A stretch of 64,000 nt of DNA from Escherichia coli (GTDB lineage: Bacteria; Pseudomonadota; Gammaproteobacteria; Enterobacterales; Enterobacteriaceae). The notes under the pieces are model-generated. The model did not search any database and was not told the DNA's origin. It worked only from the letters and a program-made list of their open reading frames with translations. The position numbers and the translations under genes were made by a program. Below, piece after piece: positions 43,088 through 55,803 of the stretch (positions are counted from its first letter, which is position 1; every line of letters begins with the position of its first letter). The DNA is taken from assembly GCF_044324875.1 (NCBI RefSeq), contig NZ_CP172185.1. One strand, 5' to 3'.

Positions 43088-44281
43088 TTATTTCGTTTGT
43101 ACGTTTTTCTCCATAAGTGAATCAATGTAATCAGCGTACCACTGCATCATTTCACGACGTCCATCGAGATACAGGGCATGATTATAGGTACCCCTGATGG
43201 AGTTTTTATCCACATGCGCTAACTGCATTTCAATCCAGGCAGAATTAAAGCCCTGTTCGTGCAGAATTGTGCTCATTGTGTGACGAAAACCATGGCCGGT
43301 TGCTCTGCCATCGTAACCGATGCGTTTTAGTACCATATTGATGCTGGCTTCACTCATCGGTTTGTTAACATCGCAACGTCCGGGGAATATAAGGCGATAC
43401 TGCCCGGTAAAACGATGCAATTCCTGCAGCAGTGAAATGGCCTGGCGTGACAGAGGAACAATATGATGCCTGCGCATTTTCATTCGCTCTTCAGGGATAT
43501 GCCAGAGTGCGTTGTCAGAATCAATTTCTGACCATTCGGCCAGCCGCAATTCAATCGTTCTGAGTCCGGTCAGCATCAGCAGGCTCGTCGCCATACGGGT
43601 GACAGGACTGCCATGATAGTCAGCGAGCTTCCGGAGAAAAACAGGAAGTTCATCCGCTCTCAGATGGGGAAAATGTGCGGTTTTTGGTGCCGCCAGCGTA
43701 CTGGTCAGTTCTGATGCAGGATTGACAGTGGCACGTCCTGTGGCAATGGCATAACGGAAAATCTGATTGCAGTATTGACGGACCTTGCGTAATTTTTCCA
43801 GAGAGCCACGTTTTTCAATACGACGCAAAATCTCCAGCATTTCCAGCGGGAGGATATCAGTCACGCTCCGGTTGCTCAGATACGGGAAAACGTCTTTATC
43901 CAGCGCTTCCAGTACGCTTCTGGCGTAACTGTCAGACCATGATAAAGATTTATGATGATGCCATTCCATTGCGAGAGCATGAAAGGTGTTGGTGACAGAG
44001 ATTTTCTGAGAGAGTTTTTCCCTTCGCTTCTTTTCACCGGGATCTCCACCCTCGGATATAATTTTTCGTGCATCGTCGCGTCTGGTTCTGGCTTCAGCAA
44101 GGGAGACGTCAGGATAGACGCCGAGGGACAGTTTTTTCTCCTTTCCTGCTGTTCTGTACTTAAGGCGCCAGTAGCGTGCTCCCGTGGTTTTTACCAGCAG
44201 ATATAAACCACGTTCATCAGAAAGTTTATAATCTTTGTCTTTAGGTCTTGCCGTTTCGACCTGTCTGGCTGTAAGTGCCAT
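43088..44281 (-). CDS. P4-type tyrosine integrase
   Basis: N-terminal LTARQVETARPKDKDYKLSDERGLYL arm-binding domain; catalytic R...HxxR...Y region (GHGFRHT, RGTYNHA). Confidence 0.85.
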   Translation of the reverse strand: MALTARQVETARPKDKDYKLSDERGLYLLVKTTGARYWRLKYRTAGKEKKLSLGVYPDVSLAEARTRRDDARKIISEGGDPGEKKRREKLSQKISVTNTFHALAMEWHHHKSLSWSDSYARSVLEALDKDVFPYLSNRSVTDILPLEMLEILRRIEKRGSLEKLRKVRQYCNQIFRYAIATGRATVNPASELTSTLAAPKTAHFPHLRADELPVFLRKLADYHGSPVTRMATSLLMLTGLRTIELRLAEWSEIDSDNALWHIPEERMKMRRHHIVPLSRQAISLLQELHRFTGQYRLIFPGRCDVNKPMSEASINMVLKRIGYDGRATGHGFRHTMSTILHEQGFNSAWIEMQLAHVDKNSIRGTYNHALYLDGRREMMQWYADYIDSLMEKNVQTK

Positions 44282-50263: not shown

Positions 50264-50838
50264 GTAACAACTTATCACAGGCCACCAACGGGCTGTTGAT
50301 GCAACTGGTGATGGATCTCAAGAGTGGCTATCTGCGGCGATGTGAAGCGCTGGGGCTTTCCCGGGAAGAAATGCAGATGCTGCAGGGGCTGAGCATTGAA
50401 GAAATTCACTATCTGTCAAATTCAGAAGTGTCGGTGCTGCGGCTGGATATTAACCACAACAATCTTGTGCGCATGTTGCAGCAGGCGCGGACTGAACAGA
50501 AACGTCTGCAGCGAATCGATCGCGCTCTGGCGCTGGGTGGGTCTATCGAACTCATGGCGTTTTATTTTGGTCTTTCCAGCGTGGATGTGGCTGCGCGGCG
50601 TCGTATCTCCGGTATTGATGTTCGTCCCGGAAGGGGGATCACCCTGAGTGACGATGAGAATTCTGAACTCTGGCGGTTGTGGCAGAAAGCCGGGATCAAT
50701 GATGTGGAGAGTGTGGATGGGCTGGATGTCATGATGCTTTGTGCTGAACAGATGAACATTCCACTGACGGCCATCTGGCATGCCGTCAGAGGGTGGCATA
50801 CAACCGGAAATCCGGATCAGGTAAGGAGTGCGTCATGA
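50260..50838 (+). CDS. pathogenicity-island replication protein, STY4526/YPO1902-like (assignment by gene order and recollection)
   Basis: 192-aa ORF translationally coupled to neighbours. Confidence 0.4.
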   Translation: MSNNLSQATNGLLMQLVMDLKSGYLRRCEALGLSREEMQMLQGLSIEEIHYLSNSEVSVLRLDINHNNLVRMLQQARTEQKRLQRIDRALALGGSIELMAFYFGLSSVDVAARRRISGIDVRPGRGITLSDDENSELWRLWQKAGINDVESVDGLDVMMLCAEQMNIPLTAIWHAVRGWHTTGNPDQVRSAS

Positions 50839-51083
50839 AGATGACAGAACTGGTTCCCGGAGTGCTGACAAGTCCGGGCGTCCCTCCCACCAGTCAGCGT
50901 AAGGCGGTTGAACTGGTCAATCGCTTCCGTCGTGGAGAGCGGAATTATCATGAACTGAAGGAAAGAGGATTTGGTTATTTCAAGATTGATGTTGGTCCTG
51001 ACTGGCGGTTACTGAGCCGGAATAAAGGGCTGACCTGGGCCCTGTTGAGTCATGAACGATACAACAACATGAGACTGAAGTGA
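50835..51083 (+). CDS. small hypothetical protein
   Basis: ATG 50835 preceded by AAGGAG. Confidence 0.4.
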   Translation: MKMTELVPGVLTSPGVPPTSQRKAVELVNRFRRGERNYHELKERGFGYFKIDVGPDWRLLSRNKGLTWALLSHERYNNMRLK

Positions 51084-51092
51084 GGTGGAAAG

Positions 51093-51350
51093 ATGAGTAA
51101 TGCAGCAAGACTCCAGCTGGGTTTTTCTCCGTTTTCAAAAACTATCGTGCTGGCAAAAATGCGTAATCTTGACGACGGAACCAGTCTTCGTGTCGGTAAT
51201 GATCCCGGTCGCGATGTAACCAATGAGGCGGCTCAGCTTGTCTGGCATCTGGTCATGGCAGAAGGTGGTGAAATTATGTGGGAAATGGACGATGGCTCCC
51301 GCATGGTGCTGAAGGCTGAAAGTCAGGAGGCAACCAGTGAGCAAGATTAA
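51093..51350 (+). CDS. small hypothetical protein
   Basis: 85-aa ORF. Confidence 0.35.
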   Translation: MSNAARLQLGFSPFSKTIVLAKMRNLDDGTSLRVGNDPGRDVTNEAAQLVWHLVMAEGGEIMWEMDDGSRMVLKAESQEATSEQD

Positions 51351-51945
51351 CTACCAGGCACTGCGTGAGGCGGCAGAGCAGGCAATGCATGACGACTGGG
51401 GATTTGACACGGATCTTTTCCATGAGCTGGTAACACCATCGATTGTGCAGGCACTGCTGGATGAACGGGAAGCCCAAAGCAAACACGTAGCTGAACTGGA
51501 GGCTAATTTATCGGCGATGACCGAAGACCACCAGAAAGCGACTGAGTCAATTAAGCAGGCTGATTCGGCTGTTAAGTTGGCACACGAGACGTTTTCGGCG
51601 CTGGCGGCGGAGAATGCAAAGCTGAAGAAGTTCTGCAAAGACGCTGCATTCGATGCCGATTACGAAGCAGAGTCAGGTATGGAGCGTGGTGGATTCAGTG
51701 ATGCGCTTAACGAAATCAAAATCACAGCCACCGACGCTTTCCTGGCTGAAGTACGGGCGCAGGGGGTGGATGCTGCTATAGACGCTGCAAAAAATCTGGT
51801 GGCTCAGGAATATGAGTATAAGGATTTCAAAGCGGCGCAGAGTGATTGCTGTATGTTTCCTGGTTCAGACCTGGTAGGGAAGGTTGAAATGACCGAGTGG
51901 TTAGTTGACTTTGCCGCAGAGCTTCGCAAAGGAGGCAACCAGTGA
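51337..51945 (+). CDS. hypothetical protein (N-terminal KINYQALREAAE module)
   Basis: shares N-terminal module with the next ORF. Confidence 0.45.
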   Translation: MSKINYQALREAAEQAMHDDWGFDTDLFHELVTPSIVQALLDEREAQSKHVAELEANLSAMTEDHQKATESIKQADSAVKLAHETFSALAAENAKLKKFCKDAAFDADYEAESGMERGGFSDALNEIKITATDAFLAEVRAQGVDAAIDAAKNLVAQEYEYKDFKAAQSDCCMFPGSDLVGKVEMTEWLVDFAAELRKGGNQ

Positions 51946-52256
51946 ACAAGATTGACTATCAGGCACTGCGTGAGGCGGCAGAAGCAATAAAAATAGCAGC
52001 CACACCACAAAAATTGCTGGCATTTCGTATGAAAGTCACACCTCAGGTTGTGCTGGCGCTGCTGGATGAGCTGGAAACCAAAGAAGAACAGCGAGCTAAC
52101 TTGCAGGGACCAGAAGGATTGATTAAAGCAGTGCGCTTCTATGAACAGGTTAAGCGTGAAAATCCGCCAGTCGAAACCGGAGTATGGAAAGACGCTGTTG
52201 ACTGGGTGCTCAAAGAGGCTTGCCAGGCTGTAAACATTGGCATCAAAGGAGAGTGA
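51942..52256 (+). CDS. hypothetical protein (paralogous N-terminal module; C-terminal module duplicated at 53322-53513)
   Basis: MNKIDYQALREAAE... and ...PEGLIKAVRFYEQVKRENPPVETG. Confidence 0.45.
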   Translation: MNKIDYQALREAAEAIKIAATPQKLLAFRMKVTPQVVLALLDELETKEEQRANLQGPEGLIKAVRFYEQVKRENPPVETGVWKDAVDWVLKEACQAVNIGIKGE

Positions 52257-52258
52257 GA

Positions 52259-52750
52259 GTGCAGATTTCACCGGTTACTCTTCGTGTTGCGAAGGCGTTT
52301 ATATCCAGACATCACCGACACAATAAACCCCCGGTGGGGCATAAATTCAGCATTGGTCTGAGAAATGATGCCGGAGAATTGATAGGTGTGGCGACAGCCG
52401 GTCGACCTGTAGCACGACATTTGGATGATGGATTAACGCTTGAAGTAAATCGCACATGTACCACAGGAGAACGCAACGCTAACAGCGCGCTTTATGGTGC
52501 TGTCTGGCGGGCAGCAAAAGCTATGGGTTATCAACGTTGTATTACGTACACCCGGGCAGATGAATCAGGAGCATCTCTTCGCGCAACTGGTTTTGTTCGT
52601 GTGAAAGAGCTTCCTCCAAGAAAAAGCTGGGCGGAATCAAGCGTCGCCCTGCGGAGTAAACGCGATCCAGTCGGAAACGGTGGTGTTCCTCGTGTGCTCT
52701 GGGAAATCAGGAGAATGAGTACCACTGGTATTCGCATCAAAGGAGAGTGA
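52259..52750 (+). CDS. hypothetical protein
   Basis: GTG start just after previous stop; ends with GIRIKGE. Confidence 0.4.
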   Translation: MQISPVTLRVAKAFISRHHRHNKPPVGHKFSIGLRNDAGELIGVATAGRPVARHLDDGLTLEVNRTCTTGERNANSALYGAVWRAAKAMGYQRCITYTRADESGASLRATGFVRVKELPPRKSWAESSVALRSKRDPVGNGGVPRVLWEIRRMSTTGIRIKGE

Positions 52751-52751
52751 T

Positions 52752-53267
52752 ATGGCGTTAACACACCACGAACTCTGTCAGATTGCGTACAAGTTCCTTA
52801 AGCGCAACGGGTTCAAGGTTTGCTTTCATGACCGCTTTATAGCTGTAACCAGTACCGGAGAACAGCCAGATGCTATGGGATTCAGAAATTCAGCATCATG
52901 CCTGATAGAGGCGAAGTGTTCTCGTGCTGACTTGTTGGCAGATAGAAAAAAGCGTTTCCGTAAAAATCCCTCACTTGGCATGGGCGACTGGCGATTCTTT
53001 ATTAGTGAGCCGGAAATTATTTCAGTTGAGGATTTACCTCCCGGCTGGGGATTACTTCACGTTGTTAACGGAAGAGTACGGAAAGTACATGGATGGCCCA
53101 GGGGTAATTGCTGTTGGGGTAATCCTGACGATAAGCCATTTACTGGGAATAAGCAGGTTGAATGCGATTACATGTTATCTGCATTAAGGCGCATGGAGCT
53201 AAGAGGACACCTTAATGAAATATATGACGGTGTAATTGTTAATAAGAAAGAAGGAAACGCAGCATGA
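52752..53267 (+). CDS. hypothetical protein, possible PD-(D/E)xK nuclease-like
   Basis: D...E-x-K arrangement (QPDAMGF ... IEAKCS); inference only. Confidence 0.35.
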   Translation: MALTHHELCQIAYKFLKRNGFKVCFHDRFIAVTSTGEQPDAMGFRNSASCLIEAKCSRADLLADRKKRFRKNPSLGMGDWRFFISEPEIISVEDLPPGWGLLHVVNGRVRKVHGWPRGNCCWGNPDDKPFTGNKQVECDYMLSALRRMELRGHLNEIYDGVIVNKKEGNAA

Positions 53268-53321
53268 CCACTTTAACCGACAAAGAACTAATTAAAGAAA
53301 TCAGAGAGCGAATACCCCGCC

Positions 53322-53513
53322 TTGCCAGCGTCGGTAGTGCCTGAAGGACTGGTTAAAGCAGTGCGTTTCTATGAACAGGTAAAGCGTGAGAATCCGCCAG
53401 TCGAAACCGGAGCATGGAAATACGCTGTTGACTGGGTATTACAGGAAGCATGTCAGGCTGTTCATTGGTGCCGACAGATATCAGCCCTTCAGGAACAGGA
53501 GAATCATTCATGA
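53322..53513 (+). pseudogene. partial duplicate of the C-terminal module of ORF 51942-52256
   Basis: about 85 percent nucleotide identity to 52113-52240; lacks the N-terminal module. Confidence 0.4.
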
Positions 53514-53725
53514 GAAAAATCAGTGGAATGTTGAATCTGGAGAAGGCCAGGATGCAGTTGCGTGTTTTGTTATCTGGACCTGTTCCTGCAATCACTCCGA
53601 TGGCGCATGCCGTGGCAATAAAAGTTGTGCTTGATGCTCTGGATGCGAGTGAGCGGAGGGTGGCTGAACTGGAACAGGTCTGCACTGCCGCGGGTATTCG
53701 TATCAAAGGGGAACAAGTGAAATGA
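53510..53725 (+). CDS. small hypothetical protein
   Basis: RBS AGGAG before ATG 53510; ends GIRIKGE-like. Confidence 0.35.
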   Translation: MRKISGMLNLEKARMQLRVLLSGPVPAITPMAHAVAIKVVLDALDASERRVAELEQVCTAAGIRIKGEQVK

Positions 53726-53943
53726 AACGGAAAATGCAGACAATTTCGGGTCCTGTGATTATCGACAGTAATGAGGTGACACAGTTTTACCCGGACCATG
53801 AAAGTGGAGGGGAACTCACCGCTGTTGAGTACCTTGCTGACGGGGGAAGAATCACCGCGAGGGTGAGGCACTCTTTTTATCAGGTTGCTGCGGCACTTGC
53901 CGGGGCATGGCGTGCGGATGATGCATCAAAAAGCGGTGGGTGA
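53722..53943 (+). CDS. small hypothetical protein
   Basis: 73-aa ORF. Confidence 0.3.
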   Translation: MKRKMQTISGPVIIDSNEVTQFYPDHESGGELTAVEYLADGGRITARVRHSFYQVAAALAGAWRADDASKSGG

Positions 53944-54203
53944 GGACTGTGCCGGAATGATTGTCTGTTCCGAAGCTGCTGAGCCGCGACATAAATTTTT
54001 TATGTTGCGGTGAAGCAGCCGACAAACGAAGAGCGTCAGCGTATCAACAGTTAAGGAAAATATCTTCTGAAGCCGGACGCGACAGTCAGTCCGGTGGTGC
54101 TCGTGTGGTGAAGTGTTTAGCCTGCATCTTTGACAGGGTTCAGTTATAAGCATTTCGGAAACCGTTCCCCGGGGCAGTCTGCCGGGATTTAAGGAGTTTA
54201 TTT

Positions 54204-55483: not shown

Positions 55484-55803
55484 TCTATGGCGCTACTGGC
55501 ACCATAGTACAAAAAATAAGCGATGGTGCCACTGGCACCATAGTACAAAAAATGAGCGATGGTGCCACTGGCACCACGGTATAAAAAATGAGCGATGGTG
55601 CCACTGGCACCACGGTATAAAAAATGAGCGATGGTGACGCTGGCACCATAGTACAAAAAATAAGCGATGGTGCCACTGGCACCACGGTACAAAAAATAAG
55701 CGATGGTGCCACTGGCACCATAGTACAAAAAATGAGCGATGGTGCCACTGGCACCATAGTACAAAAAATGAGCGATGGTGCCACTGGCACCATAGTATAA
55801 AAA
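55484..55803. repeat. iteron array: ~9 tandem 36-bp units each containing palindrome GGTGCC-ACT-GGCACC
   Basis: period 36 bp measured between successive GCGATGGTGCC starts (55520, 55556, 55592...). Confidence 0.85.

Follow-up and report, generated by a model that had tools for sequence, protein, structure and literature searches.

A temperate-phage Ead/Ea22-type mosaic gene array within the replication/partition operon of an integrative and conjugative element of Escherichia coli

Introduction

The ea22/ead genes of lambdoid phages lie between exo and xis. Ea22 acts pro-lysogenically in phages, and a K/RGE motif "of unknown significance" closes every Ea22 protein (Dydecka et al., PMC7093339). 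Pro-lysogenic activity and tetramer formation have been demonstrated for the Ea22 of lambda and of Stx phages (PMC7093339, PMC10834534). The genes are mosaic, and Stx-phage Ea22 proteins follow a common plan, in which a short N-terminus held in common precedes a helical middle and a C-terminal part that varies (PMC10834534). Mosaicism of lambdoid genomes is described by the boundary-sequence model of Susskind and Botstein (1978) and of Clark et al. (2001, on HK620), as cited in PMC3029335. According to PMC3739013, the replication/stabilisation module at the 5′ end of ICEHin1056 is conserved and required for transfer. Here we describe a gene array at 51.3-53.9 kb of a 64,000-nucleotide (nt) stretch of Escherichia coli DNA (contig NZ_CP172185.1; hereafter the window), located in an integrating conjugative element (ICE) of the Salmonella pathogenicity island 7 (SPI-7) type. 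The array opens with a pair of Ead/Ea22-like genes, followed by one XF1762/Mom-like gene and one PD-(D/E)xK gene; a gene remnant and two small, conserved open reading frames (ORFs) complete it.

The locus is an Ead/Ea22-type mosaic array of a known kind in an unusual host element. Its Ead-like ORFs A and B exceed the PF13935 threshold, have the same N-terminus/helical middle/variable C-terminal plan as the Stx-phage proteins and share the K/RGE-type ending of lambdoid Ea22. In a lambdoid prophage, ORF D follows Ead genes exactly as it does in the ICE. Several differences set the array apart. It lies in an ICE replication/partition operon instead of between exo and xis; the C-terminal parts of ORFs A and B are unrelated by sequence to the solved lambda Ea22 C-terminal domain, to which neither ORF gave a match; ORF B, by contrast with the phage genes, is a deletion derivative; and lambdoid phages take a lysogeny decision, which an ICE does not have in the phage sense. 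As in the lambdoid mosaics of the boundary-sequence model, the array has short conserved boundaries, non-homologous neighbours and breakpoints piled up at the boundaries, whereas the exchange network here takes in four kinds of element (ICE, lambdoid prophages, P2-like prophage and P1-like plasmid). Its flanking genes (parA, dnaB-PI, parB, DUF2786, DUF2857, STY4528-type rep, topoisomerase III and ssb) match the SPI-7-type/ICEHin1056-type replication/stabilisation module. A limited literature search found no account of a phage-type Ead array as a variable insert in such a module.

We consider it probable, at roughly 80%, that the locus is a temperate-phage accessory array at an ICE recombination hot spot, reshuffled by homologous recombination at boundary blocks.

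Results and Discussion

Repeated modules within the array

Comparison at the sequence level establishes a mosaic structure with repeated modules that come from phages, junctions that link many partners to many others, and breakpoints centered on those junctions. The features on which the argument draws are given below in window coordinates; the window is 100% identical to the chromosome of E. coli TUM1886 (NZ_CP128970.1; window 51000 = record 910513), from whose RefSeq annotation the surrounding gene order is taken.

51093..51350, plus strand: DUF7446 gene, left flank of the variable spot, kept in related ICEs; Pfam PF24233, E = 1.7e-15; phrog_1578
51325..51377, plus strand: first copy of the 5′ boundary block; ribosome-binding site AGGAGG and, after 6 nt, a GTG start followed by codons for SKINYQALREAAE; 94% identical to 51930-51982
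51337..51945, plus strand: ORF A, Ead/Ea22-like, 202 amino acids; PF13935 50.1 bits against a cut-off of 27
51930..51982, plus strand: second copy of the 5′ boundary block; the stop of ORF A and the start of ORF B share the letters GTGA
51942..52256, plus strand: ORF B, Ead/Ea22-like, 104 amino acids; PF13935 38.9 bits against a cut-off of 27
52110..52231, plus strand: C-terminal module copy 1 (PEGLIKAVRFYEQVKRENPPVETG...); phrog_26213 and phrog_660; 87% identical to 53340-53461
52228..52258, plus strand: 3′ junction 1, from ORF B to ORF C; ...GGCATCAAAGGAGAGTGA, then GA, then GTG
52259..52750, plus strand: ORF C, XF1762-family (Mom-like), 163 amino acids, ending ...TGIRIKGE; NF045478 201.4 bits against a cut-off of 50
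52722..52756, plus strand: 3′ junction 2, linking ORFs C and D; GGTATTCGCATCAAAGGAGAGTGA followed by T and ATG; resolved recombinant joint
52752..53267, plus strand: ORF D, intact, 171 amino acids, predicted PD-(D/E)xK fold, outside any Pfam family
53264..53344, plus strand: 26-codon remnant (MTTLTDKELIKEIRERIPRLASVGSA*) of the 5′ end of another gene; ATGA overlap with ORF D
53322..53513, plus strand: C-terminal module copy 2, pseudogene remnant with the ICE-type tail HWCRQISALQEQENHS; labeled "missing N-terminus" by PGAP
53510..53725, plus strand: ORF F, 71 amino acids; repeat families D3 and D4; kept in ICE variants with the DUF7446-type flank
53688..53725, plus strand: 3′ junction 3, degenerate copy; GGTATTCGTATCAAAGGGGAACAAGTGAAATGA; 90% identical to 52727-52746; matches ATCAAAGGRGA
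53722..53943, plus strand: ORF G, 73 amino acids, last gene before the gap ahead of rep, kept in ICE variants; phrog_5994, E = 7e-26

A first-pass annotation, made from the letters of the window, had interpreted the region as shuffled cassettes in the cargo of an ICE, an interpretation that our analysis supports in part. The self-similarity it described is confirmed by formal alignment of 51000-54200 against itself, using BLAST and a repeat finder. The C-terminal module gives the strongest pair (52110-52231 against 53340-53461, 122 nt, 87%, E = 1.3e-38, at a spacing of 1230 nt). The N-terminal module that the adjacent small ORFs were said to share is likewise recovered, ribosome-binding site included (51325-51377 against 51930-51982, 53 nt, 94%, E = 1.5e-18), with a weaker extension at 51430-51477 against 52035-52082 (77%, E = 6e-5). 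The shorter 3′ junctions are paired at 52236-52256 and 52730-52750 (95%, E = 7e-4) and, as a variant, at 52727-52746 and 53693-53712 (90%, E = 0.03).

Two of the original descriptions require correction. The second C-terminal module does lie 1.2 kb from the first, as described, but it is a pseudogene remnant rather than a plain 5′-truncated copy, out of frame relative to the 26-codon N-terminal stub at 53264-53344 that precedes it. The junction said to be common to three gene ends is present as the exact 17-mer GCATCAAAGGAGAGTGA at two ends only, 52240-52256 and 52734-52750; the third end, at 53700-53725, carries the variant GTATCAAAGGGGAACAAGTGAAATGA, and its stop codon comes three codons later.

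The junction is short, which is all that can be said for a chance resemblance or a low-complexity artefact. The E-values of the modules (1e-38 and 1.5e-18) speak against it, as do the three copies of the 11-mer ATCAAAGGRGA in the 64-kb window, where 0.10 would be expected and none of 100 shuffles yields as many as three, and the presence of the exact 17-mer in at least 120 viral contigs. On these grounds chance was rejected, and we regard its probability as practically negligible.

Phage, prophage and plasmid sources of the modules

Separate parts of the 3.2-kb region were located in 2759 of the 5426 complete E. coli genomes examined, in 324 phage records, mostly of Stx-converting and other lambdoid phages, and in 684 plasmid records; the arrangement of the whole array is found in two genomes only. 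By their family matches, the modules are temperate-phage early-operon genes of the Ead/Ea22 family (PF13935), and their sharing spans the ICE, lambdoid prophages, P2-like prophages and P1-like plasmids. A 91-kb plasmid with phd/doc, which looks P1-like, carries three Ead genes and XF1762.

Two tracts meet within the array. The first, 52109-52756, which takes in module copy 1, XF1762 and the junction, matches a P2-like prophage of strain N31 at 96.8% identity; in that prophage the DNA is flanked by the replication endonuclease/ParM genes on one side and by the portal gene on the other. The second, 52724-53275, made up of the junction and ORF D, shares 98% identity with a lambdoid prophage beside mlrA in strain SCU-105, where it lies upstream of xis and int in a region with two Ead genes. 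With the P2-like tract ending at 52756 and the lambdoid tract starting at 52724, the two overlap in the 33-nt junction 52724-52756 only, and this overlap is the signature of a crossover inside the junction.

These identities also bear on local tandem duplication and divergence, by which the repeats would be paralogues arisen in place, with no outside input. Such an origin would account for neighbouring Ead-like genes with 94% identical starts and for a C-terminal module that occurs twice within 1.2 kb. However, the modules are 96.8-98% identical to the prophage copies (96.8% to the P2-like and 98% to the lambdoid prophage) and 99.8% identical to another ICE, compared with 87-94% between the copies in the window. 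Every module thus has its nearer relative in some other element and not in its paralogue in the window, which disfavours simple local duplication; the same modules are moreover found in other combinations in thousands of genomes. Duplication in situ was rejected on this ranking, and we hold it to be very unlikely.

Junctions as mosaic boundaries

Three blocks are conserved far beyond their neighbours: a ~ 55-nt 5′ block, a ~ 30-nt 3′ junction and the C-terminal module of ~ 150 nt. All three recur in the gene arrays of lambdoid prophages, P2-like prophages and P1-like plasmids. The 5′ block consists of the ribosome-binding site, the start codon and the codons for KI(D/N)YQALREAAE of Ead genes. 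The 3′ junction, GGCATTCGCATCAAAGGAGAGTGA-N-ATG, combines the last codons of one gene (AGIRIKGE) with the Shine-Dalgarno sequence of the next, the stop and the next start; its conserved island CGCTGGCATTCGCATCAAAGGAGAGTGA[T/G]ATG encodes ...AGIRIKGE, followed by the stop, one base and the next start. An island of ~ 30 nt is near the minimal homology usable by E. coli and lambda Red recombination.

Both short blocks are linked to many different partners. Among 114 usable viral instances of the 3′ junction, at least 30 upstream and at least 37 downstream clusters (300 nt each) are joined in at least 79 combinations, and 115 viral instances of the 5′ block AAAGGAGGCAaCCAGTGAGCAAAATTAACTATCAGGCACTGCGTGAGGCGGCAGA fall into 50 upstream and 32 downstream clusters in 78 combinations. 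Across 142 unique instances of the 3′ junction, 446 pairs resemble each other only upstream, and in 415 of these similarity is lost within 20 nt past the stop; of 395 pairs that resemble each other only downstream, 355 lose similarity in the 20 nt preceding the 17-mer. In 9136 of 10011 junction pairs, neither flank is alike over its full length of 280+ nt. These patterns support the proposal of the first-pass annotation that the region is a mosaic arisen by recombination of modules, with the repeated junctions as the joining places.

A short sequence recurring at cassette-sized intervals beside many different partners would also be expected of a site-specific cassette system, integron- or shufflon-like, in which the junction is the site of a dedicated recombinase. 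Integron gene cassettes are likewise small, promoterless, same-strand genes swapped as units at recurring short sequences. The array differs from them in having neither an annotated adjacent integrase nor an attC-type imperfect inverted repeat or hairpin, and in that its junction lies inside coding sequence. No integrase or invertase is annotated beside the ICE array, nor among the adjoining features in the P2-like prophage or the P1-like plasmid, and the junction is made up of coding sequence, ribosome-binding site, stop and start. A repeat scan found no inverted repeat at the junctions, and RNA folding of five junction regions gave no structure beyond shuffled controls (z from -0.98 to +1.29). 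A hairpin signal is thus absent at the RNA and the DNA level, and on these z-scores the candidate of an attC-like or regulatory hairpin was rejected. The breakpoints carry flanking homology, in the form of the 150-nt C-terminal module and the 55-nt 5′ block, as homologous exchange predicts. The earlier description of the recombination as cassette-like is thus not borne out, and we judge a dedicated cassette system to be highly improbable.

Variation among related ICEs

Between the same flanks, from DUF7446 to ORF F, related ICEs display at least four arrangements:

Loci L130, L132 and L134: Ead244, D, 140-amino-acid gene
Locus L131: A, Ead245
Locus L135: Ead222, Ead244, D, 140-amino-acid gene
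Loci L136-L138 (window type): A, B, XF1762, D, remnant
Loci L133, L139 and others: degraded forms of these arrangements

Homology of these ICEs to the window breaks at 51375-51380 and 51980, where the 5′ block ends, at 52725 in the junction, at 53275, and at 53334-53340, where the C-terminal module starts. For L002, L003 and L130 it stops at 51375 and for L004 at 51980, and all ICE variants regain homology at 53334-53340, where module copy 2 serves as their right-hand crossover block.

In E. coli NC101, a distant ICE lineage whose backbone is 77% identical carries a pair of Ead-like genes at this position (L243 5898-6682). The presence of an Ead gene there in so diverged a lineage indicates that it is an old resident of the operon and can serve as docking homology. 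In the NC101 element, nothing except the two Ead-like genes stands between the ParE-like gene and rep, an arrangement that may represent the minimal or ancestral state of the hot spot.

Constraint on the junction and the K/RGE ending

The position of AAGGAG, 6-7 nt ahead of the next start, identifies it as the Shine-Dalgarno sequence of the next gene. At [KR]GE-stop gene ends outside the search selection, AAA-GGA-GAG-TGA-N-ATG is found in 8 of 14 unique contexts, compared with ~ 1.8% expected from internal [KR]GE codon use in the same loci (AAA 30%, GGA 23%, GAG 26%). The peptide encoded by the junction stretch AAAGGAGAG could also be encoded as AAGGGCGAA. A natural variant, AAAGGAGACTGATATG (L005 4430-4660), encodes a protein ending in ...KGD, not ...KGE, and retains AAAGGAGA-C-TGA-T-ATG, with ribosome-binding site, stop and start kept. 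The KGE ending is also found on proteins of different families, namely Ead C-terminal domains, the XF1762 protein and ORF F. Taken as sequence patterns, these observations demonstrate constraint on the junction at the DNA level, and the simplest reading of the K/RGE motif is that of a translated shadow of the ribosome-binding site/stop/start signal. A literature search on Ea22 together with Shine-Dalgarno or translational coupling showed no relevant paper among the matches listed.

The alternative is that the C-terminal peptide (A)GIRIKGE is itself functional, as a degradation or interaction tag, in which case the DNA conservation and the many-partner linkage would be by-products. Conservation that extends ~ 15 nt upstream of the Shine-Dalgarno core would fit such a role, and K/RGE is treated as a protein motif in published work (PMC7093339). 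The near fixation of the codons, the TGA, the 1-nt spacer and the ATG, while internal [KR]GE codons are varied, points the other way, as do the occurrence of the motif at the ends of proteins of different families and the KGD variant, which alters the residue and keeps the ribosome-binding site, stop and start. We therefore consider a function of the peptide itself unlikely.

Proposed mechanism and the observations that weigh against it

In the mechanism that we propose for a phage-derived array reshuffled at boundary blocks, the conserved blocks would supply homology, and recombination would swap the DNA between them. Crossovers would proceed via RecA or phage Red/RecT-type enzymes with co-resident prophages. 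We infer homologous exchange because it fits the boundary-sequence model (PMC3029335) and because lambda Red recombines diverged sequences efficiently (PMC2327257). Illegitimate deletions would leave gene remnants behind, and the junction would drive translational coupling of adjacent genes.

Several points weigh against this reading. The census loci were chosen by exact motif match, and the breakpoint test of junction pairs is ungapped. The joint at 53275-53340 is without a shared block, and the ends of the ORF B deletion share only 2-3 nt of microhomology; illegitimate events have therefore also contributed. Finally, the conserved junction reaches ~ 15 nt upstream of the Shine-Dalgarno core (GGCATTCGCATC, encoding AGIRI), a part that ribosome binding leaves unexplained and for which a peptide role or another signal is possible.

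The proteins of the array might act on host or competitor DNA, on host processes or on developmental decisions soon after cell entry or element activation. Such roles are suggested by the pro-lysogenic effect of Ea22 in phages, the Mom-like nature of XF1762 and the nuclease-like nature of ORF D; for each protein the putative function derives from its family or its predicted fold.

Individual genes of the array

ORFs A and B have their N-terminal 13 residues in common. Segments of ORF A match 14 different PHROGs and segments of ORF B match 12. ORF B corresponds to the 245-amino-acid Ead of L131 minus an in-frame internal segment of 132 codons: identity to L131 is 99.8% up to 52101 and resumes at 52100 in the L131 C-terminal module, and the tail HWCRQISALQEQENHS is replaced by NIGIKGE leading into XF1762. 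In five aligned proteins the C-terminal module is preceded by five different upstream sequences, and the N-termini of L126 and L003 are without similarity to Ead. Sequence searches of the PDB gave no match for ORF A, weak matches to designed helical repeat proteins for ORF B and only E > 0.2 for ORF D.

ORF C is, by its profile matches, a relative of the phage Mu Mom family rather than a demonstrated member. It is an XF1762 equivalog (201 bits) and matches phrog_1384, "Mom-like DNA modification protein" (E = 8.5e-42), whereas its score against Pfam Mom (PF25680) is 22 bits, under the gathering threshold of 27.1. It differs from the family also by an additional tail of ~ 27 residues ending in TGIRIKGE. 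A literature search found no papers on XF1762.

ORF D, which starts at 52752, had been noted in the first-pass annotation for a D...ExK arrangement. This arrangement stands: D40, E53 and K55 are invariant in an alignment of 35 homologues, and the AlphaFold2 model (mean predicted local distance difference test score, pLDDT, 83.7) predicts a restriction-endonuclease-like fold with a D...(D/E)xK motif on its core strands. ORF D differs from SPO1766 (PDB 3dnx) and other PD-(D/E)xK nucleases, its closest known counterparts, in having no Pfam or NCBIfam match, its only PHROG match being a weak one to "DNA repair protein" (E = 0.005). It has 304 homologues across Enterobacterales, in none of which a Pfam domain covers this part. 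RefSeq labels the gene as a 179-nt "frameshifted" pseudogene in many genomes (also in L002, L003, L005, L127 and L244); because the ORF is intact and conserved, the label is probably a systematic annotation artefact for a family without a Pfam model. ORF D is also found on a plasmid, beside a mobilisation gene and traL.

Within the 26-codon remnant, homology to prophage and ICE relatives stops at 53275. ORF F, whose identical protein is found in 4361 blocks of the assembly collection, resembles a minimal Ead in sequence (VVLDALDASERRVAELE...AAGIRIKGEQVK). Neither Pfam nor NCBIfam assigned a family to ORFs D, F and G or to the remnant, and ORF F is also without a PHROG match.

Setting in the ICE

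The element was assigned to the SPI-7 type from dnaB-PI, STY4528 rep, STY4534, TIGR037xx ICE proteins and TraD (RefSeq annotation, and the Pfam content of ten further copies). Its gene order is parA, dnaB-PI, parB, DUF2786, DUF2857, ParE-like, DUF7446, the array, STY4528-type rep, PFL_4669-family, topoisomerase III and ssb, all on the plus strand from parA to ssb, with pilus and transfer genes after ssb. The array was originally placed in the ICE cargo zone. It lies instead within the conserved replication/partition operon, close to the parA end of the ICE, between ParE-like/DUF7446 and the STY4528-type rep. Among 5426 complete E. coli genomes, 65 carry the backbone flank of DUF2857, ParE-like and DUF7446 genes, in every case on the chromosome.

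The array genes are tightly packed. The 3′ end of the DUF7446 gene overlaps the first Ead start at 51337 by 14 nt, there is a GTGA overlap at 51942 and ATGA overlaps at 53264, 53510 and 53722, and the genes are otherwise separated by 1-2 nt. A promoter scan found no promoter-like site inside the array, the sole plus-strand site scanned, 44033-44062, lying upstream. The G+C content is 0.44-0.50 across the array compared with 0.53-0.56 in the ICE backbone.

Several further features of the element were observed around the array. The ParE-like toxin-domain gene at 50835-51083 (PF24732, E = 9.5e-18) is part of the operon, overlaps DUF2857 upstream and is present in every ICE lineage examined; an antitoxin partner is not evident in the annotation. 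In the 260-nt noncoding gap between ORF G and rep, an imperfect palindrome of 45 nt (53975-54019, 76% self-complementary) could be an operator or promoter-region element of rep. Immediately 3′ of the STY4528-type rep gene, a 36-bp tandem repeat is present in 8.8 copies with 92% matches (55487-55803), with the palindrome ATGGTGCCAGTGGCACCAT in most units; in its sequence it looks like iterons or an ICE origin. RefSeq and gene callers place a minus-strand "hypothetical protein" over this repeat, and its length of 122 or 278 amino acids between ICE copies suggests variation in repeat number, not a real gene. The PFL_4669-family ICE protein 3′ of rep has the Pfam AcaB domain PF08900 (L130-L139, ~ 2.5 kb after ORF F; ~ 55.9-56.6 kb of the window). 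Beyond the operon, the parA end of the ICE adjoins a kps group-2-type capsule cluster and an IS110 transposase fragment (L001 1-13300; ~ 31-44.3 kb of the window). An Rpn-family recombination-promoting nuclease is encoded near ssb (L001 29995-30987) and could be relevant to the tendency of the ICE to recombine.

Implications

Mosaicism via boundary sequences is already established for lambdoid phages, and in this respect the advance is incremental. The array shows, at the level of sequence, how genes have recently passed between prophages and a conjugative element, with tracts 96.8-98% identical and one crossover resolved to 33 nt. For the K/RGE motif at the ends of Ea22 proteins it offers a simple explanation, a ribosome-binding site/stop/start signal that also marks a mosaic boundary, and it draws attention to two common, unstudied proteins, the 171-amino-acid PD-(D/E)xK protein and the XF1762 Mom-like protein.

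A wider and rather doubtful extension is that the junction and the Ead 5′ block are a common homology currency of several types of temperate phage, phage-plasmids and ICEs in Enterobacteriaceae. If this were true, homologous recombination would give any element with one Ead-type gene access to the entire pool of small accessory genes. The system would be a recombinase-free counterpart of the integron, with the resident Ead-like gene in the early operon of the ICE as its docking point, and some of the pooled genes, the Mom-like XF1762 and the PD-(D/E)xK protein for example, may serve in anti-restriction or anti-defence.

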